Shown here piece by piece: positions 10,764-40,036 of a DNA stretch of 41,355 bases; within the stretch, counting starts at the first letter, position 1; each line of letters starts with the position of its first letter. The position numbers and the translations under genes are program-made. The stretch spans positions 1 through 41,355 of the forward strand of contig JAIPHN010000002.1 of the NCBI GenBank assembly GCA_021735185.1, written 5' to 3'. Under the pieces are notes generated by a model. That model saw nothing but the letters and a program-made list of their open reading frames with translations. It did not search any database and had not been told where the DNA came from. The DNA comes from Candidatus Bipolaricaulota bacterium (lineage in GTDB: Bacteria; Bipolaricaulota; Bipolaricaulia; M55B111).

Positions 10764-10897
10764 GCAGTCAAGAATTCCGGCCAAGGGACGGGGCTTGTAG
10801 AAAGTCCCTTTTTAATAGTTTTTTCGGTCTTTTACAACACGAGACCCAGCATCCCCAGGGCAAGCCCTGGGGGGTTCTCAGTTAGTGTTGGTAAAAG
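10764..10897 (+). repeat. interspersed intergenic element, copy A1 (short form without internal hairpin)
   Basis: Four exact blocks are shared with copy D about 29 kb away: GGGGCTTGTAGAAA, CGAGACCCAGCA, CATCCCCAGGGCAAGCCCTGGG and GGTTCTCAG. The tail is TTGGTAAAAG. An 8-bp hairpin lies at 10853-10872. Confidence 0.9.
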
Positions 10898-11625
10898 TGT
10901 ACTAAGATTTCATTTGTGGCCTTGATTCTGGCTATTTAAATTTCAAAATGTTCTAAAGAATACAATGTATGTGAACTTTAAATATTAAAAAGCGAACAAA
11001 CAATTCAATCATTTAAGAGTCTTTGAGTTCTACAACCTGCTTCACTTTAATAAAAAGGAACTGAAAAGAAGTACTAGTTTAAATACTCCGATACTAGCCA
11101 GACACTGTCGGAACTTTGTTCTTGACAGTTGGTCAAAAAAGGAGTTAGTCAAGACAGTCCTAAGGCAAAAATCCAACCAAATAGGGCCCCAACAACTCTT
11201 CTGTTTTTTTAGTGACCTCACGTAATCCCCTATTTCAGGATTACAACATTTGACCTGTTAATAAGGATGATCTCGAGAAAAGTCACGATCCCAGATATTG
11301 CCTAGCTTCCGGTATGGCCGACTGTTTAAAGAGTAAGTTAAACCTTGAACTAAGTGGCTTAATTGACCATTAAAAGGTAATGGTTTTTTCGATCTTCCGA
11401 AAATTACTCAGGTAATTACGAAAAGATAAAGGGACTGGTGTTTTCCATTAATGACTTCCTGATGATTTTGGGCTTTGGCGTTCTTCTGAAACTTCTCGAC
11501 GAAACCCTTACGGAACTGAACTATTTCACGAGCCGGTTAACCGAAATAACAGATCTTTAAAAGCTCAGACCCGAGAAGCCCTGGTCCGAGGCAGGTTCAC
11601 CTTCGGGGGACTATATTGAATCATA
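10898..11625 (+). repeat. cluster of decayed copies of the same element (about three, eye-aligned)
   Basis: At 11015-11165, GTCTTTGAGTTCTACAAC and CCAGACACTGTCGGAACTTTGTTC resemble the D left arm plus loop start CCAGCAGTCAATTCGGAACTGGCTTTGTAC. At about 11190-11330, TGTTTTTTTAGTGACC..ATTACAACATTTGACCTG is seen. At about 11420-11625, TCTTTAAAAGCTCAGACCC..AAGCCCTGG..GGTTCAC is seen. Confidence 0.35.
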
Positions 11626-11900
11626 TTAACCAATTGCAAAAAGAGTTAGAGTTCCAATCAGAGGAAAAACATGCTACCGTTTTGCTGAAAAACCCTGTGT
11701 TTCCTCGAGGTGAGATCAGGTAAAATAGTAGTAGGTAATAGTTAAAGAATTGAGCCCGTAAAATATAAAAAGTCAGAACTACAGGGGTTGTTGACCGGGA
11801 ATTTAATAGAATTTATCCTAATTTGTTGTTATTATTGAAATCATACTTTCATCAAGTTAGCAGATCTATTAAATAACATTAGGAGGTGGGTTTTTTAACA

Positions 11901-12908
11901 ATGAACCACGAAAATAAAGCCAAATGGGGAATCCTTGGCACGGCAAATATAGCAAAAAAGGCGCTCGTGCCAGGAATAAAGGATGCGGATAATTCAGAGT
12001 TATTTGCTGTGGCTTCAAGGAGTGAAGGAAAAGCACGGCAATTTGCGGAGGAGTTCGAATTACCGAGTTATTACAGTTCTTACGAGAACCTGCTCGGGGA
12101 TACGGAAATAGATTTTGTCTACATCCCGCTGCCAAATCACCTTCACCACGAATGGACAATCAATGCTTTTAAGAAGGGGAAAAACGTACTCTGTGAAAAA
12201 CCCCTGGGAACCAACTCCGGAGAAGTAGAGGAAATGTTCGAAATAGCCGGGAAGGAAAACCTGACGCTCATGGAAGGATTTATGTATCGGTTTCACCCAC
12301 AGACCAGAAAGGTAAAAGAGCTTATTGAAAAAGGAGAAATAGGTGAACCCAGCTTCTTCCGCGGGGCCTTCTCGTTTCCGTTAATAACTGAAGACCGGGA
12401 CGACGACATCCGGTGGAAGGAGGAAATGGGCGGAGGATCATTGATGGACCTTGGAACCTATTCCGTCAATACCGTTCGCTACCTATTCGGAGAGGAACCC
12501 AACAGGGTCTTCGGTAGAAACTTTACCCATCCGGATCACACTGCCGAGGCAGAAACGCAGGCAATTCTGGAATTTCCTTCAGGCAAAACGGCAACCATAG
12601 ACAGTAGTTTTCTTCTCACCGATCGTGCAAATTACGAGGTAACAAGCAAGAACGGCAGGATCCAGGCTTTTGATACTTACGGTCCGAGAAGAGGTAAGCG
12701 CCTTAAAATAGATATCGATAAGGGCAACACGAGAGAAACCGAAGTCTTAGAAGGCGTCAACGAATACTCGCTGGAAGTCGAACACCTGGTGGACTCCGTG
12801 CGAGAGGAAAAAACTCCATTTGTTTCGCCGGAGGACAGTATTAACAACGCCAAAGTTCTTGATGGGATAAGGGCTTCTGCAGAAGAGGAGAAGTGGGTAC
12901 AGGTTTAA
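11901..12908 (+). CDS. Gfo/Idh/MocA family NAD(P)-dependent oxidoreductase
   Basis: KWGILGTANIAKK is the N-terminal Rossmann motif, and LCEKPL is the EKP motif of the family. The ATG at 11901 follows AGGAGG (11881-11886). The track start at 11886 overlaps the SD. Confidence 0.8.
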   Translation: MNHENKAKWGILGTANIAKKALVPGIKDADNSELFAVASRSEGKARQFAEEFELPSYYSSYENLLGDTEIDFVYIPLPNHLHHEWTINAFKKGKNVLCEKPLGTNSGEVEEMFEIAGKENLTLMEGFMYRFHPQTRKVKELIEKGEIGEPSFFRGAFSFPLITEDRDDDIRWKEEMGGGSLMDLGTYSVNTVRYLFGEEPNRVFGRNFTHPDHTAEAETQAILEFPSGKTATIDSSFLLTDRANYEVTSKNGRIQAFDTYGPRRGKRLKIDIDKGNTRETEVLEGVNEYSLEVEHLVDSVREEKTPFVSPEDSINNAKVLDGIRASAEEEKWVQV

Positions 12909-12934
12909 GGCTATACTAAAATCCGCTGAAAACT

Positions 12935-13049
12935 GAAGGGCTTATATAGAAAGCCAGATAGGCCAAAAGTTAAGAGCTCGAAAACGAAGATTATGACCAA
13001 CGAATTTCTACGAAGTTTTACTTCGTCGGTGATTTTTGGTATTCTAAGC
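12935..13049 (+). repeat. interspersed intergenic element, copy H (compact)
   Basis: AAGGGCTTATATAGAAAGCC aligns with A1 CGGGGCTTGTAGAAAGTCC. GATTATGACCAA aligns with B GATGACCCA. CGGTGATTTTTGGTA aligns with B CGGCGATTTTGGTA. A hairpin ACGAAGT-TTT-ACTTCGT (13010-13026) occupies the position of the GC hairpin. Confidence 0.6.
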
Positions 13050-13366
13050 TAATTTGTATAATAATTAATTTCGCTGCGATTCCCCTTTCTCAATTATATT
13101 CGATCGATTTTGGCAATGCTTTCTAAGTACCGCCGTTTGACATACTCTCATCTTACACCATGCACACTTAAACTCAAAAGAAAGGCATCAGGATAAGTAC
13201 TCGAACATTCTGCTACCAGGAGATTCGCGATAAGTTCTGCTTGATACAATTTCAAAGATTTTGGGTGGCGTGCTGCGATATATTTTGGGGAAAGATCCTT
13301 TTTTCAATATCTCCATAATCTTACGAGCAGGTTAGCACAAACACTATCGGCCGTGTTTTTATATAC

Positions 13367-13395
13367 TTGACATAATATCTCATTTTTGTTATTTT
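13367..13395 (+). promoter_or_regulatory. sigma70-type promoter of the LacI-family gene / galactoside locus
   Basis: TTGACA (13367-13372), 17 nt, then TATTTT (13390-13395). Confidence 0.55.
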
Positions 13396-13402
13396 GATTG
13401 CG

Positions 13403-13435
13403 TACGTTACCGGTAATGTTTACGGTAACGTTATC
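13403..13435. promoter_or_regulatory. candidate LacI-family operators (palindromes) between promoter and start codon
   Basis: TTACCGGTAA (13407-13416) is a perfect 10-bp palindrome. GGTAACGTTATC (13424-13435) is a CG-centred near-palindrome of the AACGTT type used by LacI/GalR repressors. CGTTACCG-N10-CGGTAACG is also an inverted repeat. Confidence 0.5.
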
Positions 13436-13446
13436 AAAAGGAGGTA

Positions 13447-14454
13447 TTGATATTGGATCGTGTTACTATGGAGGATATAGCGGAAAAAGCGGGAGTTTCA
13501 ATTAACACGGTCTCCAGAGCACTTAACGATAAGCCCGATATTAACGATCAAACCAAAAAAGAAGTCCTTCAAATTGCCGAACAGCTTAACTATCAACCAA
13601 ATCGTTTTGCGAAAGGGTTACGTTCGAGCAAGACTTCAACTCTCGGAGTCATAGTAGCCGATATAATGAACCCTTTCTTCTCCGCCCTCCTAAAAGGTGT
13701 GGAGAAGGCGGCGCGAGAAAAAGGTTACAGTATAATAGTCCAGGATACGGACGAAAAATTTGAAAACGAACAATCCGCGATTCAAACCATCCTGGCCGAA
13801 CAGGTGGATGGTTTGCTGATCACTCCTGTTCAGACGAACCAACAGACTATAAATGAACTAAAACACTCGGAGTTGCCTTTTGTTCTACTCGGACGCCATT
13901 TTGACGATCTGGATTCACATTACGTAGTAACCGACGATATCCAGGGTGCTAGCGAGGCTACGGAACACTTAATCGCACGAGGTCACGAAAGAATTGCAAT
14001 CATTAACGGCCCAACTCACATTTCCAGCTCAAAAGAACGCCTGGAAGGTTATCGTCAGACCATAATGGCACATGATCTTTCCTTACGTGATTCATTTATT
14101 CTAAAGGACAATGTGACGATGGAAGACGGTTACAGGTCTGGAAAGGAACTCATTTCAGCTTCTTCCAGACCGACTGCAGTACTTTGTTATAGCGACTTCG
14201 TTGCCATGGGTGTGATAAAAGCTGCCAGGGATGAAGGGCTGAATATACCGGAGGAGCTGGCGGTGGTTGGATACGACGACGTATTGTTTTCAACTTACCT
14301 AGAAGTCCCATTAACGACAGTTAGGATCCCCAAGAAAGAACTGGGGGAAAAGGCACTTCACGCTTTAGAAACGTTAATCGATGGTGGCGAGACTGAAAAT
14401 AACTTGCAGCAAATAAAACTGGATACGGAACTGGTAATTCGCCAGAGTACGTAA
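13447..14454 (+). CDS. LacI/GalR-family transcriptional regulator
   Basis: TMEDIAEKAGVSINTVSRALN is the family HTH, followed by a periplasmic-binding-protein-like sugar-binding core. The start is ambiguous (TTG 13447, TTG 13453 or ATG 13468). An SD AAGGAGG lies just upstream. Confidence 0.9.
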   Translation: MILDRVTMEDIAEKAGVSINTVSRALNDKPDINDQTKKEVLQIAEQLNYQPNRFAKGLRSSKTSTLGVIVADIMNPFFSALLKGVEKAAREKGYSIIVQDTDEKFENEQSAIQTILAEQVDGLLITPVQTNQQTINELKHSELPFVLLGRHFDDLDSHYVVTDDIQGASEATEHLIARGHERIAIINGPTHISSSKERLEGYRQTIMAHDLSLRDSFILKDNVTMEDGYRSGKELISASSRPTAVLCYSDFVAMGVIKAARDEGLNIPEELAVVGYDDVLFSTYLEVPLTTVRIPKKELGEKALHALETLIDGGETENNLQQIKLDTELVIRQST

Positions 14455-14488
14455 AAAGTTAAGTGGGGGGTGGTAACTGGCATAATTC

Positions 14489-14518
14489 TCGCAATCTTTT
14501 TTCACGGCGAGGTATAAT
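14489..14518 (+). promoter_or_regulatory. possible internal promoter for the ABC transporter genes
   Basis: TCGCAA (14489-14494), 18 nt, then a perfect TATAAT (14513-14518). It lies 27 nt upstream of the binding-protein start. Confidence 0.4.
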
Positions 14519-14544
14519 ACCTGAATATAATAGGAGGTATAAAA

Positions 14545-15810
14545 ATGAAAAAACTTTCTAGCTCTCTAATAGTGTCCGTTCTGGTCATTTCATTTGTTAT
14601 TGGAATTAGTCTGGCCGGTCTGGCTGCGGATAAAAAGAAGGTAGTTATAAATTCTTACATGGCCGACCCCGCACCCAAGGAAACCTTGAAACAACTGGTA
14701 AATCGTTTCGAAGAAGAACATCCGGATTTTGACGTAACTATTAATACTTACCCGCACGAGGACTATAAAACGTTAATTAGAACTTGGCTTCCGTCAAAGA
14801 AGGCAAGCCCGGATATCGTAACCTGGTTTGCCGGTGAAAGAGCGAATACTTTTGTCGACAAGGGCTTAATGATGCCTCTCGATGATATCTGGGGTGAAGG
14901 GAAAAGTTTTGAGGACTACTTTCCCAAAGCATTTAAGTCCATCTCTCAGTTTGAAGGAGAGACTTACTTCCTGCCTCAATCCTGGTACTGGTACGGCTTC
15001 TGGTACAGGGAGTCCGTATTCGATAAGCTAAACCTTGAAGAGCCGGTTACCTGGAAACAGTTCCTGGACGTCTGCGAAAAACTCAAGGAAAACGGGTATA
15101 CGCCAATAAGTATCGGTTCCAAGTTTCGCTGGACCGCGGCTGCCTGGTTTGACTACTTTGATCTCAGGCTCAACGGTGCCGATTTTCACATGAAATTGAT
15201 GAAGGGTGAGGTCAAATATACTAACCCGAAGGTCAAGGACGTCTTCGAGAAATGGAAGGTTCTTCTCGACAGAGGGTACTTCCTCGACGACCATACTTCT
15301 TATTCCTGGCAGGAAGGGGCAAAGTTCCTGTTTAACAAGGAAGCCGGAATGTACCTGATGGGACAGTTCATCCAGGACGTCGTTTCCGACGAAAAAGTCA
15401 AAAAGGATTTGAATTTCTTCCGATTCCCAATTATTGACGCCAGCGTACCGATAGCTGAAGAGACTCCAACTGACGGCTACATGATTCCAAAGAACGCTCC
15501 TCATCCGGAAGCCGCAAAGGAGTTCATGCACTATCTCGCGACGCAGCAGTCTCAATGGTTCTTTGCCGATAATTTAAACAGAATTGCTGCCAATAGAAAC
15601 ATAGAGGAAACAAACTACGGACCGCTCGTTCAAAAGGGTCTCAGGATGATTAACCGTTCGGACAAAGTAACCCAGTTCTACGACAGGGATACCAAGCCGG
15701 CGATGGCGGACAAAGCGATGGATCAAATAGTCAAGTTCATGGTCAATCCGGGCCAGATAGATCAGATCCTCCAGGCCATGGAAGCACAGAGAAAGAAAGT
15801 CTTTGAATAA
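14545..15810 (+). CDS. carbohydrate ABC transporter substrate-binding protein (family 1 / CUT1)
   Basis: It has an N-terminal signal/anchor segment, is about 420 aa, and is W/Y-rich as sugar-binding proteins are. Two MalF/MalG-type permease genes follow. SD AGGAGG lies upstream. Confidence 0.85.
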   Translation: MKKLSSSLIVSVLVISFVIGISLAGLAADKKKVVINSYMADPAPKETLKQLVNRFEEEHPDFDVTINTYPHEDYKTLIRTWLPSKKASPDIVTWFAGERANTFVDKGLMMPLDDIWGEGKSFEDYFPKAFKSISQFEGETYFLPQSWYWYGFWYRESVFDKLNLEEPVTWKQFLDVCEKLKENGYTPISIGSKFRWTAAAWFDYFDLRLNGADFHMKLMKGEVKYTNPKVKDVFEKWKVLLDRGYFLDDHTSYSWQEGAKFLFNKEAGMYLMGQFIQDVVSDEKVKKDLNFFRFPIIDASVPIAEETPTDGYMIPKNAPHPEAAKEFMHYLATQQSQWFFADNLNRIAANRNIEETNYGPLVQKGLRMINRSDKVTQFYDRDTKPAMADKAMDQIVKFMVNPGQIDQILQAMEAQRKKVFE

Positions 15811-15835
15811 ACCACGGAGGAAAATTAGATAGCCG

Positions 15836-15860
15836 GGAGGGGAGGTCCGCCCTCCCCTCC
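15836..15860 (+). terminator. intercistronic GC-rich stem-loop after the binding-protein gene (partial terminator / mRNA stabiliser)
   Basis: GGAGGGGAGG (15836-15845), loop TCCGC, then CCTCCCCTCC (15851-15860), a 10-bp perfect stem. TTCTGTCT follows. The position between the binding-protein and permease genes is typical for differential expression. Confidence 0.5.
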
Positions 15861-15876
15861 TTCTGTCTAACAAACA

Positions 15877-16749
15877 ATGAACAAGAGACGATGGGCTCCG
15901 TTCAAGTTCCTGCTGATTCCGGTTATCCTGTATGCAATCTGGGTAATAGCTCCGATCTTTTACACGATATTCCTCAGTTTTACCCAGTGGGATGGACTTA
16001 CTGCTCCGACGTTTATAGGGATTGGTAACTTCGTTGATCTTTTCAACGATCCCATATTTTACACTGCTCTCTTTAATAACATAAAATGGCTACTGGTTTA
16101 CGTCCTGGTTCCTCTGCCGCTTGGTCTAGCTTTCGCGATGTTCTTCAACAGGTCTCTGCCTGGTGTTAAAATTTTTAAGACGGCGATATACCTGCCTTTG
16201 ACGCTTTCCTTCGTCGTTCTTTCTCAAATATGGACCTGGATTTACCAGCCGAAGTACGGGGCGATCAACGTTACGCTCGAAGCCATTGGACTGGGGAATC
16301 TGACTGTTGCCTGGCTGAGTAACTCCGATATAGTAACTTACTCCCTGATTGTGGTCGGGTGCTGGCCCCAGACGGCCTATACGATGGTCCTTTTTCTCGC
16401 CGGATTACAGAACGTCCCTACTGAAGTTATGGAGGCTGCCAAGGTCGATGGGGCCAACAGGTGGCAGAGATTTTGGAAAGTGATTTTACCCCTGCTCAAG
16501 CCGGCAACAATAATAGCTGTTGCCGTAACGATTATCCAATCATTACGAATGTTTGCAATAGTAAACGTGATGACTCGAGGGGGCCCCTTTCGTTCTTCGG
16601 AAGTGTTGGCCAATTATATGTACGTAGAAGGCTTTAAGAACTACAGTATGGGGTACGCCTCGGCACTGGCAGTTATACTGTTTTTAATCATTCTCCTGTT
16701 TGTCTCGGTTTATCTCTATCAGATATTTAAAACAGAGGTCGAGTACTGA
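15877..16749 (+). CDS. carbohydrate ABC transporter permease (MalF-like)
   Basis: Polytopic membrane protein with an EAA loop: EAAKVDGANRWQRFWKVILPLLKP. Confidence 0.9.
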   Translation: MNKRRWAPFKFLLIPVILYAIWVIAPIFYTIFLSFTQWDGLTAPTFIGIGNFVDLFNDPIFYTALFNNIKWLLVYVLVPLPLGLAFAMFFNRSLPGVKIFKTAIYLPLTLSFVVLSQIWTWIYQPKYGAINVTLEAIGLGNLTVAWLSNSDIVTYSLIVVGCWPQTAYTMVLFLAGLQNVPTEVMEAAKVDGANRWQRFWKVILPLLKPATIIAVAVTIIQSLRMFAIVNVMTRGGPFRSSEVLANYMYVEGFKNYSMGYASALAVILFLIILLFVSVYLYQIFKTEVEY

Positions 16750-17582
16750 TGTCCAAGAGAAGAGTATTGTGGATCGGCTCTTTCTACCTCATAGCCATCG
16801 TCATTTCTCTATTATGGCTTTTCCCACTCTTTATTGCCGGGACTACGGCATTCAAGTCCATGAACGAGATAGTTCAGAACATCTACTGGTGGAACTTGCC
16901 CGACGAATTTACCTTCCAGTACTTTGCCGAAGCCTGGAACCAGGGTGGAATGTCGCGCTACTTCCTCAACAGTTTTATAATCACGGTTCCTTCCGTAGTT
17001 GGGGCTCTATTCCTCTCCGCCCTTGGGGGCTTTGCTCTGGCTAAATATAGGTTTAAGTACAACAAGCTGATTTTAGGTATATTTATCGCAGGCAACATGA
17101 TTCCATTTCAGATGATGATGTTTCCGGTGTTTGAAATATCCAACGTTCTGGGGCTGTACGATACTTACCTGGCAGTAATTCTGTTTCACGTATCCTTTCA
17201 GATGGGGTTCTGTATTTTCTTTTTGAGGAATTTTATTCGGACGATCCCGACCGATTTGCTTGATGCCGCTCGCGTTGATGGTAGTAGCGAGTTCAGAATT
17301 TTCCTCCAGATAGTCCTGCCGCTGACCAAACCGGCCCTGGCCGCTCTGGGTATTCTGGAGTTTACCTGGATCTGGAACGATTACCTCTGGGGCCTGGTTC
17401 TGCTTGCCAGCGACAACCTGCGCCCCGTTACCGTAGGTCTGGTTTCGCTTCAGGGAGAATATCTGTCGAAGTGGAACATAATTTCAGCCGGCTCACTGAT
17501 CGCTGCTGCTGTACCTTTAATAGTCTTTCTTGTCTTTCAGAGGTACTTCATCCAGGGGCTTATGATGGGAGCCAGCAAATAG
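16749..17582 (+). CDS. carbohydrate ABC transporter permease (MalG-like)
   Basis: EAA loop DAARVDGSSEFRIFLQIVLPLTKP. The start overlaps the upstream stop (TGATG at 16747-16751). Confidence 0.9.
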   Translation: MSKRRVLWIGSFYLIAIVISLLWLFPLFIAGTTAFKSMNEIVQNIYWWNLPDEFTFQYFAEAWNQGGMSRYFLNSFIITVPSVVGALFLSALGGFALAKYRFKYNKLILGIFIAGNMIPFQMMMFPVFEISNVLGLYDTYLAVILFHVSFQMGFCIFFLRNFIRTIPTDLLDAARVDGSSEFRIFLQIVLPLTKPALAALGILEFTWIWNDYLWGLVLLASDNLRPVTVGLVSLQGEYLSKWNIISAGSLIAAAVPLIVFLVFQRYFIQGLMMGASK

Positions 17583-17611
17583 AGTTAAATTTACTCATTA
17601 CGGGAGGTACT

Positions 17612-19600: not shown

Positions 19601-19714
19601 AATGGCTGGTAACCCCCCCTCCGGTGATCTGGAATTTTCAATTGTCTTAGCAATCTAGCAAGCCACTGTCTTTATAGCTCGGCCAGAAATGAAGAGCGAA
19701 GGGTGATGAATTAA

Positions 19715-21221: not shown

Positions 21222-21473
21222 GGTCAAGAACCCCGCCCAAAGTGACGGGGCTGTTGAAAAATAAATTTAACTACGAACTTAGGCCTTTTACAAAAGATGA
21301 CCCAGCAGTCAATCGAGGAAGTTTTCGAATTTATATACGGTATAAGAAATGAACGCATAGCTAATCACTAGGCGCTTTTAAGGATAATGTACTCGATTGA
21401 CTGCTGGACAAGAACCGGCCGATTCATCCCCGCAGCAAGCTACGGGGTTTTCTCGGCGATTTTGGTAAAAAGC
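21222..21473 (+). repeat. interspersed intergenic element, copy B (long form)
   Basis: 5' GGTCAAGAA plus hairpin CCCCG..CGGGG, then CTGTTGAAAAA and TTTTACAAAAGATGACCCAGCA. Perfect 16-bp arms lie at 21302-21317 and 21392-21407 around 74 nt. The hairpin CCCCGCAG-CAAG-CTACGGGG lies at 21428-21447. The tail is TTGGTAAAAAG. Confidence 0.85.
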
Positions 21474-28454: not shown

Positions 28455-28485
28455 TGTGACCTCCTAATTCCTCATACTAATTCAG

Positions 28486-30483: not shown

Positions 30484-30516
30484 TTCCTGGTATTTTCTAA
30501 AACCTTTGATTGCGAT

Positions 30517-30550
30517 AACCCTCCCGGTTTCGCCGGGAGGGTTATTATTT
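30517..30550. terminator. bidirectional rho-independent terminator between convergent hflC and coaX
   Basis: AACCCTCCCGG (30517-30527), loop TTTCG, then CCGGGAGGGTT (30533-30543), an 11-bp perfect stem. It is followed by ATTATTTT on the plus strand and preceded by an A/T-rich tract for the minus strand. Confidence 0.8.
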
Positions 30551-31315: not shown

Positions 31316-31405
31316 AAGCAACACCAGCTCCTCTAATTACTCAAACCAGCTATCATTACTGTCCAATCTCAAATCCGATTTTCAGGTTTGAGCTTGAAAA
31401 TACGG

Positions 31406-32581
31406 TTAGTCCGAGGAAAACTCTTCTTTAACTGACTTTAAATTCTCCTTTTTCCCGAGGACGTCTATACCGGTCATCGCCAGTGCTTTTGCCGCCGTAA
31501 TCATTGCCGAGTAACCTTTGTCAGAGTTGGAGGCTTCGGCGAAAGCGTTTGAATGACCGGGGGTATTTTCCTCAGCTATTTTGATATAAGAATGTATCGC
31601 TGGAACTACCTGGCTGACATTTCCCATATCCGTAGAACCCATCCCGCCGACATGTTCATCGATTTCCTCGTTCAAGCAATCCAGGTTATCCTGAAAAAGC
31701 TCAACCAGCACTGGATTGGGCTTCATCGGTTCGTACCGCCTACCTTCTTTGGTTATCTCCAGTTCAGCACCCGCGGCAAGCGCTCCGGCTTCAGCACAGT
31801 CCTTCACTTTTTTCAGCAATTCCTCCAGGTCCGACATTTCTTTTGCACGGACGTAGAACTTTGCTCCGGCGTGTTCGGGAACAATATTCGGCTTTTCCCC
31901 GCCATCCGTGATTATACCGTGAATCCGCGAACTTTCTTTTATATGTTCTCGCAACGCGTTTACATTGTTAAAAGTAGCAATTGCAGCATCCAGAGCATTT
32001 ATTCCTTCTTCGGGCTGAGACGAAGCATGGGCTGCTTCGCCGTAGTAGTCAAATTTGAGCTCCTGAACTCCCAGGCTACCCCGCCCAACTAGAGTTTTAT
32101 CCGACGGATGAACCATCATGGCCACATCGACGTCGTCAAAGACACCGGCTTCAATCAGTTCGACCTTCCCACCGCCACCCTCCTCGGCGGGTGTCCCTAT
32201 TACCAGCAACTGTCCTCCCAGTTCTTCCATAACCGAACACAACCCAATACCGGCACCTAAACCTATATTTGCAATTAAGTTGTGACCGCAGGCGTGACCC
32301 AGGCCGGGAAGAGCATCGTATTCACTGAGATAAGCTATAGTCGGCCCCTGACTTTCATGAGGACAACGAGCTAGAAAAGCAGTCTCCAGCCCTCCGACCC
32401 CGCGTTCAACTTCGAAACCCTTTTCTTCAAGTTCTTCGGTCAACCACTGGGCCGCTCTGTGTTCTTCGAACTTCAACTCAGGGTTCTCAAATATTCGTTC
32501 GCCCAGCTCTCTTAGCTCTCTCGAAAGGCCATCTAGCTCCTTTCCGACCTGATCCTTCAGAGATTCCAGCTCCACTGACAT
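31406..32581 (-). CDS. M20-family amidohydrolase/metallopeptidase
   Basis: GHACGHN metal-binding block, GTPAEEGGGGK and MVHP blocks, about 390 aa. Confidence 0.7.
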   Translation of the reverse strand: MSVELESLKDQVGKELDGLSRELRELGERIFENPELKFEEHRAAQWLTEELEEKGFEVERGVGGLETAFLARCPHESQGPTIAYLSEYDALPGLGHACGHNLIANIGLGAGIGLCSVMEELGGQLLVIGTPAEEGGGGKVELIEAGVFDDVDVAMMVHPSDKTLVGRGSLGVQELKFDYYGEAAHASSQPEEGINALDAAIATFNNVNALREHIKESSRIHGIITDGGEKPNIVPEHAGAKFYVRAKEMSDLEELLKKVKDCAEAGALAAGAELEITKEGRRYEPMKPNPVLVELFQDNLDCLNEEIDEHVGGMGSTDMGNVSQVVPAIHSYIKIAEENTPGHSNAFAEASNSDKGYSAMITAAKALAMTGIDVLGKKENLKSVKEEFSSD

Positions 32582-32714
32582 GATATCACCTTATTTCAAG
32601 TTATTTGTGACCAGTTAACGATAAATTAAGATATTGTGATATTGTCCTCACCAGAACGCCAATTTGCAAGCACACAATTATTAAAAAAACAAAAGACTTC
32701 AGTTATCTTATCGT

Positions 32715-32920
32715 GTTAAAACCAAAACCAGCTCAATTATTGCCCTTAGTTGAAAAACATAGCCCCAGCATCAGACGGGATAAGGCCAAACTCCCTATTC
32801 CGCCAGGTAATGGACTTTTCCATCGAATAGGCACAGTACGAGATAATTGCCCTAAGTATCAAAATACGGAAAAAATTGACCTCGGCTCGAGCGAGCGCGA
32901 AGCTAAAACCTGGGATACGC
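32715..32920 (+). repeat. interspersed intergenic element, copy G (diverged, no long hairpin)
   Basis: GTTGAAAAACATAGCCCCAGCATC aligns with D CTTCAAAAACGCGAGACCCAGCA and A1 CCCAGCATC. GTTAAAACCAAAAC aligns with D TTTACAACCAAAAAAC. The tail CTCGAGCGAG..AAGC..CTGGGATACGC resembles C CTCGAGAGAGCAAG..CTGGGTAAAGC. Confidence 0.55.
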
Positions 32921-32996
32921 TTTAGGTAATAACGCTGTCGTGCCGGTTAAGGTTTTATCGTGAGACGAAATGTATCGTTCAGAGCGGGTCCGGGCC

Positions 32997-33620
32997 CTAT
33001 TTCTGGAGGTAATAGACCAGCTGCTCTAGCTCCTTGGTTATATCTACCTGAGCCAGCTGTACGTCGTCCGGAATATCAAGCAGAGTAGGGGCAAAGTTTA
33101 ATATCCCCGTTACTCCACCCTCGACAAGCTTTTCGGAAATCTCCTGAGCAGCCTGGGCAGGGACAGCAACTATTCCAATTCTGATATTTTTCTCGGAAAC
33201 TCTATCAACAAGATTGTTGACGTCCTCTATCTCAACCCCGTTTAATTCTTCCCCGATCAAGTCAGGATTTCTGTCAAATGCCATTTCTACTTCAAATACC
33301 CTCTGGTCAAATCCCCGGTAAGTAAGCAAAGCAGAGCCGATATTTCCAACCCCAACAAGAGCCATGCTCCAGCTCTTATCCAGATTAAGAATATCACGGA
33401 TCTCCGAAGCAAGCTTTTCCGTTTTGTAACCAACACCTCGAGTGCCAAAGTCACCAAAATAGGAAAGATCCTTCCTGACCTGGGCCGAGTTCAAATTGAG
33501 CCTGCTGGAAAAATTTTCGGAGGAGATATTTTCCTCCCCCCGGTCAATCAGCTTGTTAAGGCACCGCAAATAAAGAGGCAAGCGATCAATCGTTTCTTTC
33601 GGTATCCTTCTCTCTTTCAT
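32997..33620 (-). CDS. rex: redox-sensing transcriptional repressor Rex
   Basis: RLPLYLRCL is the winged-helix N-terminus and LVGVGNIGSAL is the Rossmann motif. Size is about 207 aa. Confidence 0.9.
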   Translation of the reverse strand: MKERRIPKETIDRLPLYLRCLNKLIDRGEENISSENFSSRLNLNSAQVRKDLSYFGDFGTRGVGYKTEKLASEIRDILNLDKSWSMALVGVGNIGSALLTYRGFDQRVFEVEMAFDRNPDLIGEELNGVEIEDVNNLVDRVSEKNIRIGIVAVPAQAAQEISEKLVEGGVTGILNFAPTLLDIPDDVQLAQVDITKELEQLVYYLQK

Positions 33621-33814
33621 ATCTATATCCTCTGCAACACCCTTTTTTTGGTTTTCTCCTTTTTGTAAGATAAATTATAAGGATAATTCTATGAATGACA
33701 AATATATTGCCATAATTGCCAACTTGTTAACTCAGTAACTTTATCCCGCGACTCTTTGCAAAGAATTGGCCGTTCTAATATCCTTAATTGAAAATTATAG
33801 GAGGTGCTGACCTA

Positions 33815-34885
33815 ATGCACGAAAAATTATTTACACCAGGCCCAACTGAAGTTAGAACGGAATTACTACAGGAACTTTCCACTGCACAAATTCACCATAG
33901 AACTGAAGAATTTAGCGACGTTTACGACGATATTCAGCCCAGGTTAAAAAAGTTGCTTTTTACCGATAACCCCGTTTTTCTTTTTACCTCTTCTTCGACC
34001 GGAGCCATGGAATCAGCCGTGACAAACGGTGTTAAGAAAAAAAGTTTAACCGTTTCCAATGGTGCATTTTCGGAGCGCTGGCACAAGATAACTCGAAAAA
34101 ACGGCGTACCGGCAGATATCTTAAACCAGGATTGGGGGAAACCAGTTACGCCGGAGATGGTGGATGAAAAACTCGCCACTGGCGAATACGATGCCGTTAC
34201 CATGGTATTTAACGAAACTTCAACCGGAATGATGAATCCGGTAAAAGAGGTAGGAAAAGTCGTAAACAGCTACGACGACACGATGTTCCTCGTAGATGCC
34301 GTATCCGGAATGGCAGGAGCAAAAATCAAGGTCGACGACTGGGGTATTGATATGTGTCTCGCGGGCGTCCAGAAGGCATTCGGTCTTCCTTCCGGCCTGG
34401 CGGTAGCTTCCGTCAGCGAGAGGTTACTAGAACGTGCCGAGGACGTGGAGCCAAGAAGCTATTACTTCAACCTACCGCTTTTACACAAATACCACAAGCG
34501 GAGTCAGACCCGTACCACGCCGGCCATACCACAGATTTTAGCTCTTAGAAAACAACTGAAGTATATTGTTGACGAAGAGGGAATAGAAAACAGGTTTGCT
34601 CGCCACGACCGGCTTTCCGGGATCGTCCAGAACTGGGCCAAACAGTACTTCGATATTTTCCCCGAAGAAGGTTACTGGTCAAAAACATTGACCTGTGTCG
34701 AAAATACGAGGGGAATATCCGTTGCGGATCTAAACCAGGAACTGATCGAAAAACACAATATGAGAATCGCAAACGGATACGGGGATATGTCCGAAGAAAC
34801 GTTCAGGATTTCCAACATGGCGGATTTGAGTGAACCGGACGTTCGGGGATTACTCGCCACGATAAACGATATTCTCGGACTTTAA
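33815..34885 (+). CDS. class V (AGXT/SerC-like) aminotransferase, probable phosphoserine aminotransferase
   Basis: MHEKLFTPGPTEV is typical of the N-terminus of this family. AGVQKAFGLPSG carries the PLP lysine. SD TAGGAGGTG lies 8 nt upstream of the ATG at 33815. serA follows directly. Confidence 0.75.
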   Translation: MHEKLFTPGPTEVRTELLQELSTAQIHHRTEEFSDVYDDIQPRLKKLLFTDNPVFLFTSSSTGAMESAVTNGVKKKSLTVSNGAFSERWHKITRKNGVPADILNQDWGKPVTPEMVDEKLATGEYDAVTMVFNETSTGMMNPVKEVGKVVNSYDDTMFLVDAVSGMAGAKIKVDDWGIDMCLAGVQKAFGLPSGLAVASVSERLLERAEDVEPRSYYFNLPLLHKYHKRSQTRTTPAIPQILALRKQLKYIVDEEGIENRFARHDRLSGIVQNWAKQYFDIFPEEGYWSKTLTCVENTRGISVADLNQELIEKHNMRIANGYGDMSEETFRISNMADLSEPDVRGLLATINDILGL

Positions 34886-34905
34886 AAAAGAAAAAAGGAG
34901 GAACC

Positions 34906-35820
34906 ATGGTTAAAATATTGATATCCGATCCTATCGCCGAGGAAGGTGTCGAAAAATTAGAAGATGCGGGATTCGAGCTTGACCACAAATACGATCTTTC
35001 CCCTGAAGAACTCAAGCAAGAAATCGGACAATACGAAGGTATAGTCGTACGTTCGGCCACCAAACTGAGGGCTCCGATACTGGACGAGGCAGATAACCTG
35101 GAAATAGTCGTCCGAGCCGGAGTCGGGCTGGACAATATTGATCTCGATCATGCCGACGAATTGGGTATTGAGGTCCGGAACACCCCGGAAGCTAGCTCCA
35201 ATTCCGTGGCCGAACTCGCCCTGGGCCACATGTTCTCGCTGGCCCGTGATATACCCCGGGGTACCGCTTCCCTGAAGGAACAAAAATGGATCAAAAGCGA
35301 TCTCAAAGGTACCGAGCTGGCGGGAAAAACACTGGGAATTATCGGAGCCGGCAGGATTGGGAGCTTGGTCGCTCAGAAGGCGACAGCATTAGGTATGGAG
35401 GCGCTGGCTTACGATAAGTATATTGACGAGGCACCCGTCGAAGAAATAGAGATGGTCGAGATGGATGAGTTGCTGGAAAAGTCCGATTACGTTACCCTGC
35501 ACATACCCTTCGTGGCTTCGGAAGGAGCCACTATAGCCGAAGCGGAATTGAAAAAGATGAAGGATTCCGCCTGTATCGTAAACTGTGCTCGGGGTGGCGT
35601 AGTGGATGAAGACGCTATTGCAAAAGCGCTGAAGAACGACTGGATCGGAGCGGCAGCACTGGACGTATTCACAGAAGAGCCTCCGTCCAAGGAAGAGTTG
35701 CTAAAATTCGACAATCTCTCTCTAACACCCCACCTGGGCGCGTCAACGGTTGAAGCCCAGAGAAGGGTCGGAACCCAAACAGCGGACGAATTAATGAATT
35801 TCTTTGGCAAGGAGGAATAA
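34906..35820 (+). CDS. serA: D-3-phosphoglycerate dehydrogenase (short form, no ACT domain)
   Basis: GIIGAGRIGSLVA is the GxGxxG motif. CARGGVVDE and TPHLGAST carry the catalytic Arg and His contexts of 2-hydroxyacid dehydrogenases. Confidence 0.85.
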   Translation: MVKILISDPIAEEGVEKLEDAGFELDHKYDLSPEELKQEIGQYEGIVVRSATKLRAPILDEADNLEIVVRAGVGLDNIDLDHADELGIEVRNTPEASSNSVAELALGHMFSLARDIPRGTASLKEQKWIKSDLKGTELAGKTLGIIGAGRIGSLVAQKATALGMEALAYDKYIDEAPVEEIEMVEMDELLEKSDYVTLHIPFVASEGATIAEAELKKMKDSACIVNCARGGVVDEDAIAKALKNDWIGAAALDVFTEEPPSKEELLKFDNLSLTPHLGASTVEAQRRVGTQTADELMNFFGKEE

Positions 35821-35822
35821 TC

Positions 35823-37124
35823 ATGGCTGAAGTTTACCCCTTTGAAGGTTTCAGGTACAATCCGGAAAAAGTCGGCGATATTAATCGTGTAGTTAGCCCC
35901 CCTTACGACAAAATCGATGAAGAGGAAAGAGAGGACCTCGCCAATAACAGCATTTACAACATAGTAAGAATAATTTTGAGTAAAGCGAGAGACGAAGGAG
36001 AAGATAAATACGAAGTAGCGGCAAAAAACCTCCAGGATTGGATGGACGAAGGTGTGCTGGAAAGGGATAACGAACCGGCTTTTTACGCCTACTACCAGGA
36101 GTACGAAGCCGAAGGCGAAAAGAAAGTCCGAAAAGGTTTTATCGGCCTCGGCAAGATAGAGGAAGGAGAAGGCGTCAAGGCACATGAAGAAACGATGTCG
36201 GGACCGAAGGCCGACAGACTGCGATTGCTTCGTGCAACTGAAGCGAACTTTGGCCAAATATTTATGCTCTATTCGGATCCGGAGAACCAGGTTACTCAGG
36301 TGATGGACGAGTCGAGAGATGACAACCCGTTAGTCAAAGTAAAAGACAAGCACCGGAACACGCACAAAATATGGAAATTAACTGACGAGGAAGTCATTGC
36401 AAGTATAAAAGAGGCAATGGCCGACAAAAGCCTCTACATCGCGGACGGACATCACAGATACGAGACTGCACTGAATTATTGCAATGAGTGCCGCGAGAAA
36501 GGCTGGGAATCGCCGGATACCGGTGGTTTTGACAATAGGATGATGTCCTTCGTCAACGTGGACGATCCCGGTTTGAGCATTCTCGCAACTCACAGGCTAC
36601 TGCACGACGTGAAAAACTTTAAGCCCCATGGCGTACTCGACAGTGCGAGGGAGCACTTCAGGATCTCTCGTTACAATGAAAGAGACGACCTCCTCGAAAA
36701 ACTGGATGAAGATAGAGGAGAAAAGCACACCTTCGGCTACAGAGCAAAGGATGACAAGGCTTACTGGTCCATGACACTTCAGGACGAATCAGTCATGGAA
36801 GAGCTGCTTCCGAATAAATCCTCGGCCTGGCAAAAGCTCGACGTAGCTATTCTGCACAAGTTAGTCCTGGAAAACTATCTTGGCATAGACGAGGAAGCAC
36901 TCGAGGAGAAACGAAACCTCGATTACATAAGGGGACGAGAAAAAGCCCTCGACATGCTCAAAGAAGGTGGATATCAGGGAGCCTTTATCATGAATCCAAC
37001 CAGGATAGATCAGGTCAAGGAAATTGCCGATAAAGGAGAAAAGATGCCCCAAAAGTCCACCGATTTCTATCCCAAGTTACTGACGGGTCCGGTCCTGCAC
37101 AAATTAAAGATCGATAAAGGTTAG
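35823..37124 (+). CDS. DUF1015-family protein
   Basis: YIADGHHRYETAL block, about 430 aa. The start is 3 nt after the serA stop, and the stop is 4 nt before the alaS start. Confidence 0.7.
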   Translation: MAEVYPFEGFRYNPEKVGDINRVVSPPYDKIDEEEREDLANNSIYNIVRIILSKARDEGEDKYEVAAKNLQDWMDEGVLERDNEPAFYAYYQEYEAEGEKKVRKGFIGLGKIEEGEGVKAHEETMSGPKADRLRLLRATEANFGQIFMLYSDPENQVTQVMDESRDDNPLVKVKDKHRNTHKIWKLTDEEVIASIKEAMADKSLYIADGHHRYETALNYCNECREKGWESPDTGGFDNRMMSFVNVDDPGLSILATHRLLHDVKNFKPHGVLDSAREHFRISRYNERDDLLEKLDEDRGEKHTFGYRAKDDKAYWSMTLQDESVMEELLPNKSSAWQKLDVAILHKLVLENYLGIDEEALEEKRNLDYIRGREKALDMLKEGGYQGAFIMNPTRIDQVKEIADKGEKMPQKSTDFYPKLLTGPVLHKLKIDKG

Positions 37125-37127
37125 GCT

Positions 37128-39740
37128 ATGGAGTGGACAACTGATAAACTAAGAGAAGAATATCTAAGGTATTTTGAAGAGAAAGATCATCTGAGGCTGG
37201 AGGGGTCAGGGTTGATTCCCGACGACCCCTCCATGTTATTTACTTCCGCGGGGATGGTACAATTTAAGGACGTCTTCTGGGGGCACCGTGAACCGGAGGT
37301 TGAGAGAGCCACAACCTGCCAGAAGTGTTTTCGAGCAAACGATATCGAACGCGTCGGAGAAACCTGGTACCATCATACTTTCTTCGAGATGCTCGGTAAT
37401 TTTTCTTTTGGTTCTTACTTTAAAAGAGGCGCGATAAAGCTCGCCTGGGAATTTGTTACCGATGTACTCGGTTTTGAGGAGGAAAACCTCTGGGTCTCTG
37501 TCTACGAGACGGATTCCGAAGCTTACCAGATATGGAGCGACGAAATTGGAGTTCCGGAAAGCAAGATAGCCAGGCTCGGTAAGGACGAAAACTGGTGGGG
37601 TCCGGTGGGAGATTCCGGCCCCTGTGGCCCGGATTCCGAGATATTTTACGACGCCGGGGAGGAGTATAGCTGTGGTCCCGACTGTGACGGGGTAGCCTGT
37701 GATTGTAATAGGTTCAATGAACTCTGGAATCTCGTATTTACCGGCTATCAGATGAACAGAGAAGGGGAAGTAAGGGAACTGGAAAGGCAGAACATCGATA
37801 CTGGCATGGGCCTGGAACGAGTAGCATCCGTGCTTCAGGGTGTGGATTCCGACTTTGAAATAGACATCTTTCGCCCGATTATCGCTAGCGTCAAGGAGAA
37901 AATCGGCCTCAATTCTTACACGCCAGAACAAACCAGCTACGTCCATAGAATCGCGGATCATCTCCGGGGCGCGGCATTCCTCATATCAGAAGGAGTGATA
38001 CCCGCCAACGAAGGAAGAGGATACGTTCTGAGGCGAATAATCCGGCGAGCCGTCCAGGCTGGCGACAGGCTAGGAATGAAAGAGACGTTTCTGACTTCCT
38101 CGCTGCCGCCGATTATGGATACTATGGGGGAAACTTACCCGGAACTGGTCGAACGAAGGGATTTAATCGAGAACGTCATAGAACACGAAGAGGGGAGTTA
38201 CAGAAATACGCTGAACGAGGGAGAACAGCTTTTTTATCGCCTGGCCTCGGATTTACAGGAGAACAATCAGTCCGAAATTCCCGGCAAGGACGCCTTCAGG
38301 TTATACGATACTCACGGACTACCGTTGACTTTTCTGGAAGAGCTGGCAGAAGAAGAAGACCTGGCTATCGACATGGAAGGTTTCGAGCAAGAAATGGAAC
38401 AGCAGAGGAAACGATCCAGAAGCGAACAGGAGGACAGAGGAGAACTTCACGAAGTAGTTGACGTTCCGGAAACGGAATTCCTCGGGTACGAAAAAGACAG
38501 AGCAGAAGCCCGCGTTATAGCCCTGATCAAGGACGGCGAGAAAATCAATCGACTTGAAGAAGGGGACGAGGGAATCTTAGTTCTAGACAGGACTCCGTTT
38601 TACGCGGAGGCCGGTGGTCAGGTAAGCGACGTTGGAAGGATCCTCGACGGAGAGAGCCGGACCCGAATCAAGCAAGTGGAAGAGAGGAACGGGATCTACT
38701 ATCACGAAATAGACGTATCTACCGGGAACATCGTCGAAGGAGACAGAGTGACGGCGGAAATAAATACGGATAAAAGGAGGGGGACTGAGAGAAATCATAC
38801 TGGAACTCACCTGCTCCACCAGGCGCTCCAGCAGGTACTGGGGTCCCACGTAGTCCAATCCGGTTCCAAAGTAGCTCCCGCGGAGTTGAGGTTTGACTTC
38901 AATCACTTCGAAATAACGACCGAAGAAGAACAGGAAAAAATCGAAGACATCGTCAATGAAATCATTTTATCCGACAGGAACGTCTCAGTGGACTGGGTGG
39001 AAAGCGTGGAAAAAGCAAAAGAACTCGGCGCTTCTGCTCACTTCGAGGAGGAATATCGGGGCAAGGAAGAACTGAGAACTATTACCGTTGAAGAATTCAG
39101 TAAAGAGCTCTGCGGGGGGACTCACGTAAACAGGACCGGCCAGATCGGAGGTTTTGCGATCAAATCAATAGAGACGATTGCCTCCGGCATCCGCAGGATA
39201 AGAGCCGTAACGGGTAAAAACTTCTTATCTGACTACCGCGATCAACGGGTCCTTTTGAAACAATTAGCGGATATGGCAGGCTCCGGTGAATCCGACCTCG
39301 TAGAAAGATTCAATTCGATTCTGACACAGGAGGAAAACCTGAGAGACGAACTGGAAAGAAAAACTGAAAGGTTACTTGCCACCTTAAAGGAAAAAATTCT
39401 CCAGGAAGTTGAGAGGGAGGAAGGAGTCGAGATAGTAGCTAACAGACCAAACGTCGATGCATCCGATTTGAAGCGACTGGCCGATCACGTTGAGGCCGAG
39501 ATCGACGGCGTAGTGATTCTCGGCACAACCGAGGAGGATAGTGCTTCAGTAGTCTGCAAGGTTTCCGAATCACGTACCCAGTTATTAAATGCAGGAAAGA
39601 TCGTCAGAGAGGCTTCTGCAGTACTGGGTGGCGGAGGAGGCGGTTCTGCTGGTTTCGCCCAGGGCGGTGGCCCGGAAAAGGAAAAACTCGGCCGGGCTCT
39701 GCGTTCGGGGGTAAATATCGTCAGGAGTAGCTTAGATTAA
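37128..39740 (+). CDS. alaS: alanyl-tRNA synthetase
   Basis: FTSAGMVQFK and WWGPVGDSGPCGPDSEIFYD are class II AlaRS motifs. HTGTHLLH is the editing-domain motif. A Gly-rich C-terminal DHHA1-type region is present. Confidence 0.95.
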   Translation: MEWTTDKLREEYLRYFEEKDHLRLEGSGLIPDDPSMLFTSAGMVQFKDVFWGHREPEVERATTCQKCFRANDIERVGETWYHHTFFEMLGNFSFGSYFKRGAIKLAWEFVTDVLGFEEENLWVSVYETDSEAYQIWSDEIGVPESKIARLGKDENWWGPVGDSGPCGPDSEIFYDAGEEYSCGPDCDGVACDCNRFNELWNLVFTGYQMNREGEVRELERQNIDTGMGLERVASVLQGVDSDFEIDIFRPIIASVKEKIGLNSYTPEQTSYVHRIADHLRGAAFLISEGVIPANEGRGYVLRRIIRRAVQAGDRLGMKETFLTSSLPPIMDTMGETYPELVERRDLIENVIEHEEGSYRNTLNEGEQLFYRLASDLQENNQSEIPGKDAFRLYDTHGLPLTFLEELAEEEDLAIDMEGFEQEMEQQRKRSRSEQEDRGELHEVVDVPETEFLGYEKDRAEARVIALIKDGEKINRLEEGDEGILVLDRTPFYAEAGGQVSDVGRILDGESRTRIKQVEERNGIYYHEIDVSTGNIVEGDRVTAEINTDKRRGTERNHTGTHLLHQALQQVLGSHVVQSGSKVAPAELRFDFNHFEITTEEEQEKIEDIVNEIILSDRNVSVDWVESVEKAKELGASAHFEEEYRGKEELRTITVEEFSKELCGGTHVNRTGQIGGFAIKSIETIASGIRRIRAVTGKNFLSDYRDQRVLLKQLADMAGSGESDLVERFNSILTQEENLRDELERKTERLLATLKEKILQEVEREEGVEIVANRPNVDASDLKRLADHVEAEIDGVVILGTTEEDSASVVCKVSESRTQLLNAGKIVREASAVLGGGGGGSAGFAQGGGPEKEKLGRALRSGVNIVRSSLD

Positions 39741-39794
39741 CACGAATAGCTCAGTTACGAGATAAGTTTTCACTTTTTCAGGAACTATCTGAGA

Positions 39795-40036
39795 AGTCAA
39801 TTACCCCGCCCTTCCGCGCGGGGCTTGTAGAAAAACCCCTTTACAACCAAAAAACTACATACTTCAAAAACGCGAGACCCAGCACCCAGCAGTCAATTCG
39901 GAACTGGCTTTGTACCTGTATTGAACTTTAATGAGCAGGGCGAATTGACTGCTGGGTGCTTTATATCAAGTTAAGTTAACCAGCGGCTCATCCCCAGGGC
40001 AAGCCCTGGGTGGTTCTCAGCTATTATTGGCAAAAG
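39795..40036 (+). repeat. interspersed intergenic element, copy D (long form, archetype)
   Basis: AGTCAATTA plus a hairpin at 39804-39823, then GGGGCTTGTAGAAA, TTTACAAC and CGAGACCCAGCA. Perfect 20-bp arms lie at 39881-39900 and 39941-39960 around 40 nt. The hairpin CCCAGGG-CAAG-CCCTGGG lies at 39993-40010, followed by GGTTCTCAG and TTGGCAAAAG. Confidence 0.9.

Follow-up and report, generated by a model that had tools for sequence, protein, structure and literature searches.

Probable IS200/IS605-derived gene-less elements in a Candidatus Bipolaricaulota contig and the wide occurrence of their left-end fold

Palindrome-associated transposable elements (PATEs) are short sequences without open reading frames (ORFs) that retain only the ends of IS200/IS605 (IS1341-type) insertion sequences. 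They are multicopy, and their mobilisation is presumed to take place in trans. They are known from Haloquadratum, Geobacillus stearothermophilus and Halanaerobium, and some of them have been proposed to encode omega-RNAs (PMC3119063, PMC10055086, PMC7290912). Here we analyse an entire contig of 41,355 bp from a Candidatus Bipolaricaulota bacterium (JAIPHN010000002.1 of assembly GCA_021735185.1), hereafter the window, which holds three copies, designated A1, B and D, of an element that resembles them. The three copies are very probably PATEs, that is, non-autonomous ORF-less derivatives of an IS200/IS605-family insertion sequence, because their end motif also bounds elements with TnpB, target words track the presumed guide bases, and the left-end stem shows both covariation and a G·T asymmetry. 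An earlier reading of this DNA, made without database searches (the sequence-only reading), had proposed PATE-like minus-strand ends of the IS200/IS605 type with no ORF, and the left end shared with TnpB/TnpA elements, the guide covariation and the strand-specific stem now back that proposal. The window copies differ from known PATEs in sequence family, in host and in having a left-end motif that is found across many phyla. The PATE class has already been described; only the wide spread of one left-end fold and a nested module inside some copies go beyond the routine, and the current understanding of the IS200/IS605 family is unchanged by our findings.

Like IS608 and ISDra2, IS200/IS605-family elements whose Y1 HUH TnpA carries out 'peel and paste' single-strand transposition, the window element has a subterminal hairpin at each end, lacks terminal inverted repeats and shows no duplication of the target. 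It lies 3' of a TTAC-type word, its structure is limited to one strand, and across the copies collected here the last base of the cleavage word is the pairing partner of the base 5' of the hairpin foot. In IS608, cleavage takes place 19 nt before the foot on the left and 10 nt after it on the right; the corresponding distances in the window element are 17-18 nt and 8 nt. Unlike both insertion sequences, the window element carries no genes and has a composite left end, in which an outer helix is followed by a GAGAA/ATGAATC internal loop and a hairpin whose CTTG loop is invariant. At the right end the word is TGAC in the window copies; relatives have TCAC or TCAT there, and the Acidobacteria types described below have TTAC.

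The three window copies and their fold

Copies are located by plus-strand coordinates, and the element itself is read on the minus strand. Three copies, all in one orientation, emerged from a repeat search, from BLAST and from a three-way alignment: A1 (10764-10897, 134 nt), a short form; B (21222-21472, 251 nt), the best preserved; and D (39797-40036, 240 nt), which is decayed and carries a nested module of 70 nt. On the minus strand, the left side of A1 reads CTTTTAC, 18 nt and the hairpin CCCCAGGG-CTTG-CCCTGGGG; that of B reads TTTTTAC, 17 nt and CCCCGTAG-CTTG-CTGCGGGG; and that of D reads TTTTGC, 18 nt and ACCCAGGG-CTTG-CCCTGGGG. At the right side all three have a second hairpin, rich in G+C, and after it 8 nt that end in TTGAC (GGGG-TTCTTGAC in B, GGGG-TAATTGAC in D and AATTCTTGAC in A1). 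The three-way alignment shows that similarity between copies ceases at the left and right end words. The sequence-only reading had given these spacings and end words exactly.

The complete order in B, on the minus strand, is target TTAC, left end, long internal hairpin, small hairpin, right-end hairpin and the tail TTCTTGAC. Its left end (21408-21472) starts with the target word TTTAC (21468-21472), continues through CAAAATCGCC-GAGAAAA and the CTTG-loop hairpin and closes with ATGAATC-GGCCGG, the final segment (GGCCGG) pairing with the first one to form the outer helix. The long internal hairpin (21300-21407) has arms CCAGCAGTCAATCGAG and CTCGATTGACTGCTGG around a loop of ~75 nt that is variable among copies. 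The right end (21222-21258) consists of …CAACAG, the hairpin CCCCGTC-ACTTT-GGGCGGGG and the 8-nt tail, beyond which the flank is unrelated.

Neither an ORF, nor a terminal inverted repeat, nor a flanking duplication was found in A1, B or D, which agrees with what had been claimed for the repeats and duplications before; duplication was assessed by flank comparison only, in which the right flanks differ and never repeat the target word. IS200/IS605 elements are characterised by an imperfect subterminal hairpin at each end and by the lack of terminal inverted repeats, and the retention of both ends in a length of 134-251 nt with no transposase or tnpB ORF is a feature of PATEs. A miniature inverted-repeat transposable element with terminal inverted repeats was considered as well and was rejected, since the copies lack such repeats.

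Searches with nhmmer profiles of both ends gave E-values of 1e-14 to 1e-21 at A1, B and D, the window being otherwise empty below 0.1. A covariance model built from foreign left ends only matched the window exactly three times, always on the minus strand, with the next match at E = 0.93; covariance-model scores are 34.5 bits for A1, 69.1 bits for B (E = 2.5e-12) and 31.7 bits for D. Given these profile and model scores, the matches are not due to chance. A scan of all perfect hairpins revealed no further element-like hairpin in the window. The sequence-only reading had listed an additional copy, H, at approximately 13010-13044 (GAATAC, 12 nt, ACGAAGT-AAA-ACTTCGT); we rejected this candidate, whose hairpin is unlike that of the element and which both the hidden Markov model and the covariance model missed.

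The copies are in different states. The hairpins of B are intact, and by its sequence this copy looks intact as a whole. A1 has lost the long internal hairpin and the last bases of ATGAATC, and the hairpin at its right end carries damage (GGCCGGAA for GGGGCGGGG); a comparable short form is present in a foreign locus, L021. D has the target word TTGC for TTAC, an A·G mismatch as the first stem pair and ATGAGCC in place of ATGAATC. The bases preceding the foot are AACC in A1 and D and AAAA in B, which is unusual, relatives having AATG or AAAG there. Because of these mutations in guide, stem or right hairpin, A1 and D are probably immobile relics.

Covariation was analysed in 46 distinct left ends, the four C-G foot pairs, which are fixed by the search pattern, being given no weight. 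In the inner 8-bp stem, 98% of cells are paired and four of the eight pairs vary on both sides; three positions that are free of the pattern do so in 16-22 sequences each. The outer helix brackets GAGAAnn and ATGAATC, and its two closing pairs covary (CG 27, UA 12; and CG 22, GC 14, UA 4). The covariation score of the left end beats all 500 shuffles and all slid controls. The inner stem contains 18 G·T pairs versus three A·C pairs, an excess from which it follows that the fold is selected on the minus strand of the window. Such a fold fits a substrate of single-stranded DNA or RNA, unlike a duplex protein-binding site, and strand-specific (top-strand) structure is another IS200/IS605 feature. 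Modelled as single-stranded DNA, the copies fold far better than shuffles (z = -4.0 to -5.3), with B reaching -41 kcal/mol (z = -5.3).

Related ends in other genomes and in autonomous elements

We scanned one-genome-per-species contigs with a left-end pattern of 21 specified bases, GAGAAnnnCCCnnnGCTTGCnnnGGGGATG, that fits A1, B and D. The pattern matched 74 loci, the chance expectation being estimated at ~0.3. The hosts are Bipolaricaulota, metagenome-assembled genomes (MAGs) labelled Thermotogae, Acidobacteriota, Chloroflexota/Dehalococcoidia, Gemmatimonadota, Verrucomicrobiota, several lineages of the candidate phyla radiation (CPR), Elusimicrobia, one Proteobacteria-labelled MAG and three archaeal MAGs. 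Many loci are at contig ends and up to 14 come from a single MAG, as expected for a dispersed repeat. Features that the pattern does not require recur, namely TTAC or TTAT 9-11 nt upstream (nearly all loci) and ATGAATC downstream; one of the two words adjoins the left end in ~66 of 77 copies. The covariance model also detected a second, more diverged copy in locus L001 (333-595), 3.6 kb from the first and in the same orientation, that the exact pattern had missed. Copies in L020 and L025, which are cut by contig edges in a related MAG, were considered as full-length elements and rejected, their interiors being those of ordinary gene-less PATEs. The left-end pattern had no match in viral contigs, and a BLAST search with copy B had none in plasmids.

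All-against-all comparison resolved the copies into discrete families, within which similarity begins just after TTAC or TTAT and stops at a fixed distance. The Chloroflexi/Gemmatimonadota/Bathyarchaeia type (~165 nt) ends with a hairpin followed by AGATTCA(C/T); two Acidobacteria types (~170-205 nt) end in GTTTAC; and the Bipolaricaulota/'Thermotogae' type (~250 nt), which includes the window copies, ends in CAAG-CCCCGyCCC-TTGG-GGrCGGGG-TTCTTGAC. In 11 foreign copies of the Bipolaricaulota/'Thermotogae' type, the flanks are unrelated and start with A, C, G or T right after TTGAC, which fixes this boundary; the earlier statement that similarity stops at the end words holds for them as it does in the window. 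In the sample of 74 loci, ORF-less copies outnumber TnpB-bearing ones by ~36 to 1.

The ~165-nt gene-less element is 82-89% identical across MAGs of different phyla and an archaeon: Gemmatimonadota (L014, L035), Dehalococcoidia (L026, L053, L072), Chloroflexota (L033, L045, L050, L061) and Bathyarchaeia (L069). Possible reasons for this likeness are that the element spread horizontally in recent times, that it is strongly constrained over its whole length or that the bins are contaminated. In an Acidobacteriota MAG (MAG146, locus L008), a tight array of ~29 tRNA genes (~1089-3735 and 4829-4900) lies within 3 kb of a PATE copy, and the right flank of that copy resembles, by eye only, the reverse complement of a tRNA 3' end.

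In IS608, the flanking TTAC is recognised by AAAG just 5' of the left hairpin foot (PMC5027513; PMC7290912). Among the copies collected here, the base immediately 5' of the foot tracks the last base of the flank word: TTAC occurs with G in 39 cases and TTAT with A in 20, with ~7 discordant. The flank lies outside the element, and each insertion is therefore an independent trial of target choice; we regard this tracking as the strongest single line of sequence evidence for insertion of the IS200/IS605 type. Inside the element, the right end obeys this rule too, GATG going with …TCAC, GATA with …TCAT and CAAG with …TGAC, and in TnpB elements GAAG goes with …TCAC. The guide recognition typical of the family is thus seen across copies, with those of the window deviating.

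Of the 74 loci, two have an ORF downstream of the left end: L018, from Elusimicrobia (381 aa), and L023, from Saccharibacteria (409 aa). The two proteins are 55% identical, and precomputed annotation assigns the TnpB domains PF12323, PF01385 and PF07282 to homologs of the L023 protein. Both right ends consist of a hairpin and AG(C/T)GTCAC: CCACAGAG-CAAG-CTCTGTGG-AGCGTCAC in L018 and CCCCAAGG-CTTG-CCTTGGGG-AGTGTCAC in L023, the latter being nearly identical to the right end of the Chloroflexi-type PATE. Complete IS605 units on metagenomic phage contigs contain a further TnpB, P0193, that shares 71.5% identity with the L018 protein. The left boundary of such a unit follows GTTAT, and the unit begins with AGGGAATTTCC-AAGAAAA-CCTCGTCCG-CTTG-CGGCGAGG-ATGAATTGGAAA, a diverged version of the left end with ATGAAT after the stem. 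It continues with a 53-aa ORF, a 134-aa Y1 transposase (PF01797, with an HIHIF motif) and TnpB, and ends in …GAAG-CCACGGGG-CTTG-CCCCGTGG-AGTGTCAC. The units in L078, L079 and L084 are at different sites, and their flanks change exactly after TTAT and after GTCAC; L077 has no recognisable left end, and its flank differs from those of the other three at the right boundary only. The 53-aa ORF (MNTQINIALPKEWKEELERLARVF…) is conserved between the left end and tnpA (L078 2435-2596; also L079, L080, L081, L083 and L084); it has no Pfam match on record and its sequence is reminiscent of a ribbon-helix-helix regulator. A BLAST search of GenBank phages with the phage IS605 yielded only distant, unannotated TnpB-like matches.

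L078, L079, L084, L018 and L023 share with the window copies both the left end (GAGAAnn or AAGAAAA, stem, CTTG loop, stem, ATGAAT and outer helix) and the right end (a CTTG- or CAAG-loop hairpin with an 8-nt tail); their target is TTAT, with A before the foot. They differ in carrying TnpA and/or TnpB, in their tail (AG(T/C)GTCAC versus T(T/A)(C/A)TTGAC in the window) and in their interiors, which are unrelated. To judge from these sequences, autonomous IS200/IS605 elements with the end design of the window copies do exist. The sequence-only reading was to fall if no IS200/IS605 element with matching ends existed in the genome or its relatives; it has survived that test, through these five loci.

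Several observations weigh against the assignment of A1, B and D to this family. The window copies themselves break the guide rule, with AACC in A1 and D and AAAA in B next to TTAC or TTGC. Neither tnpA nor tnpB is present within the 41-kb window, as the sequence-only reading had also stated; the tblastn queries were an IS200 TnpA sequence, the L078 TnpA and three TnpBs, searched against the window and all loci, where only L018 and L023 matched. The Y1 HUH transposase (PF01797) was detected by tblastn in none of the 74 left-end loci. We found no autonomous element with the Bipolaricaulota-type right end (…TTCTTGAC), the metagenome scan for it relying on one guessed pattern (GAAAAAGAAT, conserved in TnpB 3' ends, plus GGGGTnnTTGAC), whose 41 matches were all due to chance and none with TnpB; nor was a parent element present among the Bipolaricaulota or 'Thermotogae' loci examined. 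We obtained no base-precise empty site: L075 and L076, two syntenic relatives, have spacers that have diverged too far for the junction of D to be placed, joined-flank patterns for the phage IS605 insertions had no match in viral contigs, and a BLAST comparison of flanks against all loci gave no empty allele. Finally, Chloroflexi-type flanks all start with T, and the exact right boundary of that type is uncertain by 1 nt.

If A1, B and D are PATEs, we infer that they would be mobilised by TnpA. A Y1 HUH TnpA from a full-length relative elsewhere would bind both hairpins on the single-stranded top strand, available for example on the lagging-strand template, and would find the cleavage points through pairing of the bases 5' of each foot with TTAC in the left flank and TGAC at the right tip. 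It would then excise a single-stranded circle and paste it 3' of another TTAC. Such an IS608-like route would require no inverted repeats and leave no target duplication.

Short, intergenic, hairpin-rich copies and a dependence on Y1 HUH enzymes would also be expected of repetitive extragenic palindromes (REPs) or bacterial interspersed mosaic elements (BIMEs) that are kept by a domesticated REP-associated tyrosine transposase (RAYT), have a host role, for example in mRNA stabilisation or termination, and do not derive from a transposon. A plus-strand terminator-like site at 10790-10808 in the right-end region of A1, and more such sites overlapping the left hairpins of A1 and D, are in line with that explanation. 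REPs are single palindromes of 20-40 nt, often in inverted pairs, with no bounding target word or distinct right tip. The window elements, unlike REPs, have a left end and a right end in fixed order, both matching those of insertion sequences: their hairpins are in direct order, 60-180 nt apart, the ends correspond to those of autonomous IS605 elements with TnpA and TnpB, and the flanking target word follows the guide base. Neither inverted REP pairs or clusters nor a nearby RAYT or TnpA was found, and B lies between co-directional genes with no T-run terminator. We therefore consider an origin as REPs highly unlikely. Under the IS200/IS605 assignment, annotation of the window gains in that three intergenic repeats are most likely transposon relics, neither regulatory RNAs nor CRISPR-like features.

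Interiors, possible guide RNAs and a nested module

PATEs often encode omega-RNAs that are used in trans by TnpB (PMC10055086). The window copies and their relatives might accordingly be dispersed guide-RNA genes, the right-end part of each being a minus-strand omega-RNA scaffold that reads into the flank; we find this possible but doubtful for the family and still less likely for A1 and D. By the same tentative scheme, a TnpB from elsewhere would cut the empty site (TTAC plus flank), and the element would perhaps be restored by recombination. Such a role would supplement the transposon origin of the copies, not replace it. It is favoured by the relatives that carry TnpB directly upstream of a homologous right end and by the structured interior: the long hairpin has 16-nt arms that remain complementary although their sequences differ (CCAGCAGTCAATCGAG, CCAGCACTCACTTGAG and CCAGCACCCACTTTAG in different copies), and a small GGTCTT/AAGACC hairpin stays paired through two-sided changes. 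Interiors of the Chloroflexi type are also 85-89% identical across phyla. On the other side, no promoter-like sites were found inside A1, B and D, and a search of Rfam at the gathering threshold and at E ≤ 1, covering the window and seven related loci, matched neither the copies nor the TnpB 3' regions. Comparison by eye with the TnpB 3' ends of L018, L023 and L078 showed no likeness to PATE interiors beyond the right hairpin and tail; the loop of the long hairpin varies freely; short forms (A1, L021 and CPR copies of ~110 nt) leave little room for a scaffold; and there is no tnpB in the window.

The 70-nt module in D (39886-39955, minus strand) has perfect inverted arms of 15 nt, CCAGCAGTCAATTCG and CGAATTGACTGCTGG, around a 40-nt loop; the general arm form is CCAGCA[G/C]TCAATTCG with its complement. 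We found the module only inside PATEs (D, L059, L055, L074 and L027). The copy in D is identical to that in L059 (154-223) at 70 of 70 positions, the host elements being otherwise only ~70-75% alike. Between L074 and L055 the loop has opposite orientations, 36 of its 40 bases matching as the reverse complement. From these comparisons the module may be either a mini-element nested in its host or a segment that undergoes inversion or copying between elements.

A broader interpretation is that the gene-less form is the main way of life of this IS605 lineage, with the interiors serving as trans guide-RNA genes and the nested module flipping or moving between them. We think this improbable as a whole. 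Were it true, the lineage would have reached at least ten bacterial phyla and some archaea mostly as gene-less elements of 110-250 nt, a rare TnpB would use the covarying interiors in trans, and each copy would protect its own site. Interiors that proved to be omega-RNA scaffolds would amount to a naturally assembled list of TnpB guides whose adjacent motif is TTAC or TTAT, and work on compact RNA-guided nucleases could draw some benefit from it. The covariance model of the left end together with the guide-target table provides a cheap means of finding this IS605 lineage and its gene-less derivatives in MAGs; elements of this lineage break metagenome assemblies.

Orientation and genomic setting

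Orientation on the lagging-strand template has been reported for the IS200/IS605 family (PMC5027513). The three window copies all point the same way, and so do both copies in each of two foreign two-copy loci, L001 and L040. With the window copies taken as two independent comparisons, this amounts to four concordant ones and is suggestive only. The sequence-only reading took dnaN as a sign that forks move from right to left. In relatives, dnaN (40131-41312 in the window) is followed by tmk, lspA and a small ORF (L075 8739-11559; L076 6502-9393), not by dnaA, which makes it an unreliable guide to the origin in this lineage. We divided GC skew into coding-strand and replication components by a strand-symmetric decomposition. 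For the plus strand, the replication component comes to -0.036 when all positions are counted, to -0.065 for third codon positions and to -0.038 for intergenic sequence. The leading strand is usually G-rich, and a negative skew of the plus strand would then indicate forks moving from right to left, which would place the minus strand, the top strand of the element, on the lagging-strand template. The signal is small, comes from 41 kb with no turning point and supports that placement weakly. Of the earlier argument from dnaN, then, the fork direction finds weak support and the marker itself does not. The related claim that uniform orientation fits replication-coupled transposition is tentative, as it draws on three copies and a weak skew.

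The window, a MAG contig, encodes an alanine-tRNA ligase that shares 75-83% identity with proteins labelled Candidatus Bipolaricaulota (Acetothermia) by NCBI; a look-up of the exact AlaS and DnaN sequences of the window retrieved no record of either protein. Other genes include ileS, dnaN, a glycoside hydrolase family 4 (GH4) alpha-galactosidase and galT. A1 lies in a gene-poor spacer of 1.37 kb between divergent genes, B between the co-directional alpha-galactosidase and galT genes, and D between convergent alaS and dnaN. The alaS-dnaN spacers of the syntenic relatives L075 and L076 measure 231 and 244 nt and contain no trace of the element. D was therefore inserted after those lineages split, which dates it as younger than the separation from relatives that are ~80% identical in protein sequence.

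These settings also bear on whether the copies could instead be a non-mobile structured small-RNA gene or cis-regulatory RNA whose conservation across phyla reflects function. The strong structural covariation and the wide distribution speak for such an RNA. It would have to be reconciled with many copies per genome, often at contig ends, with unrelated flanks and with divergent, co-directional and convergent settings within the window alone. It would also leave unaccounted for the element-free orthologous alaS-dnaN spacer in relatives, the physical identity of the motif with the left end of TnpA/TnpB elements and the lack of any matching Rfam family; we regard it as extremely unlikely.

The spacer that holds A1 (10514-11885) has a low GC content (~0.40) and no long ORF, with a sulfhydrogenase-beta-like gene on one side and an oxidoreductase gene on the other. 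A1 occupies its left edge. Two strong perfect hairpins elsewhere in the window, at 15836-15860 (10-bp stem) and 30515-30545 (13-bp stem), are intergenic and unrelated to the element; the latter lies between convergent genes and resembles a bidirectional terminator.

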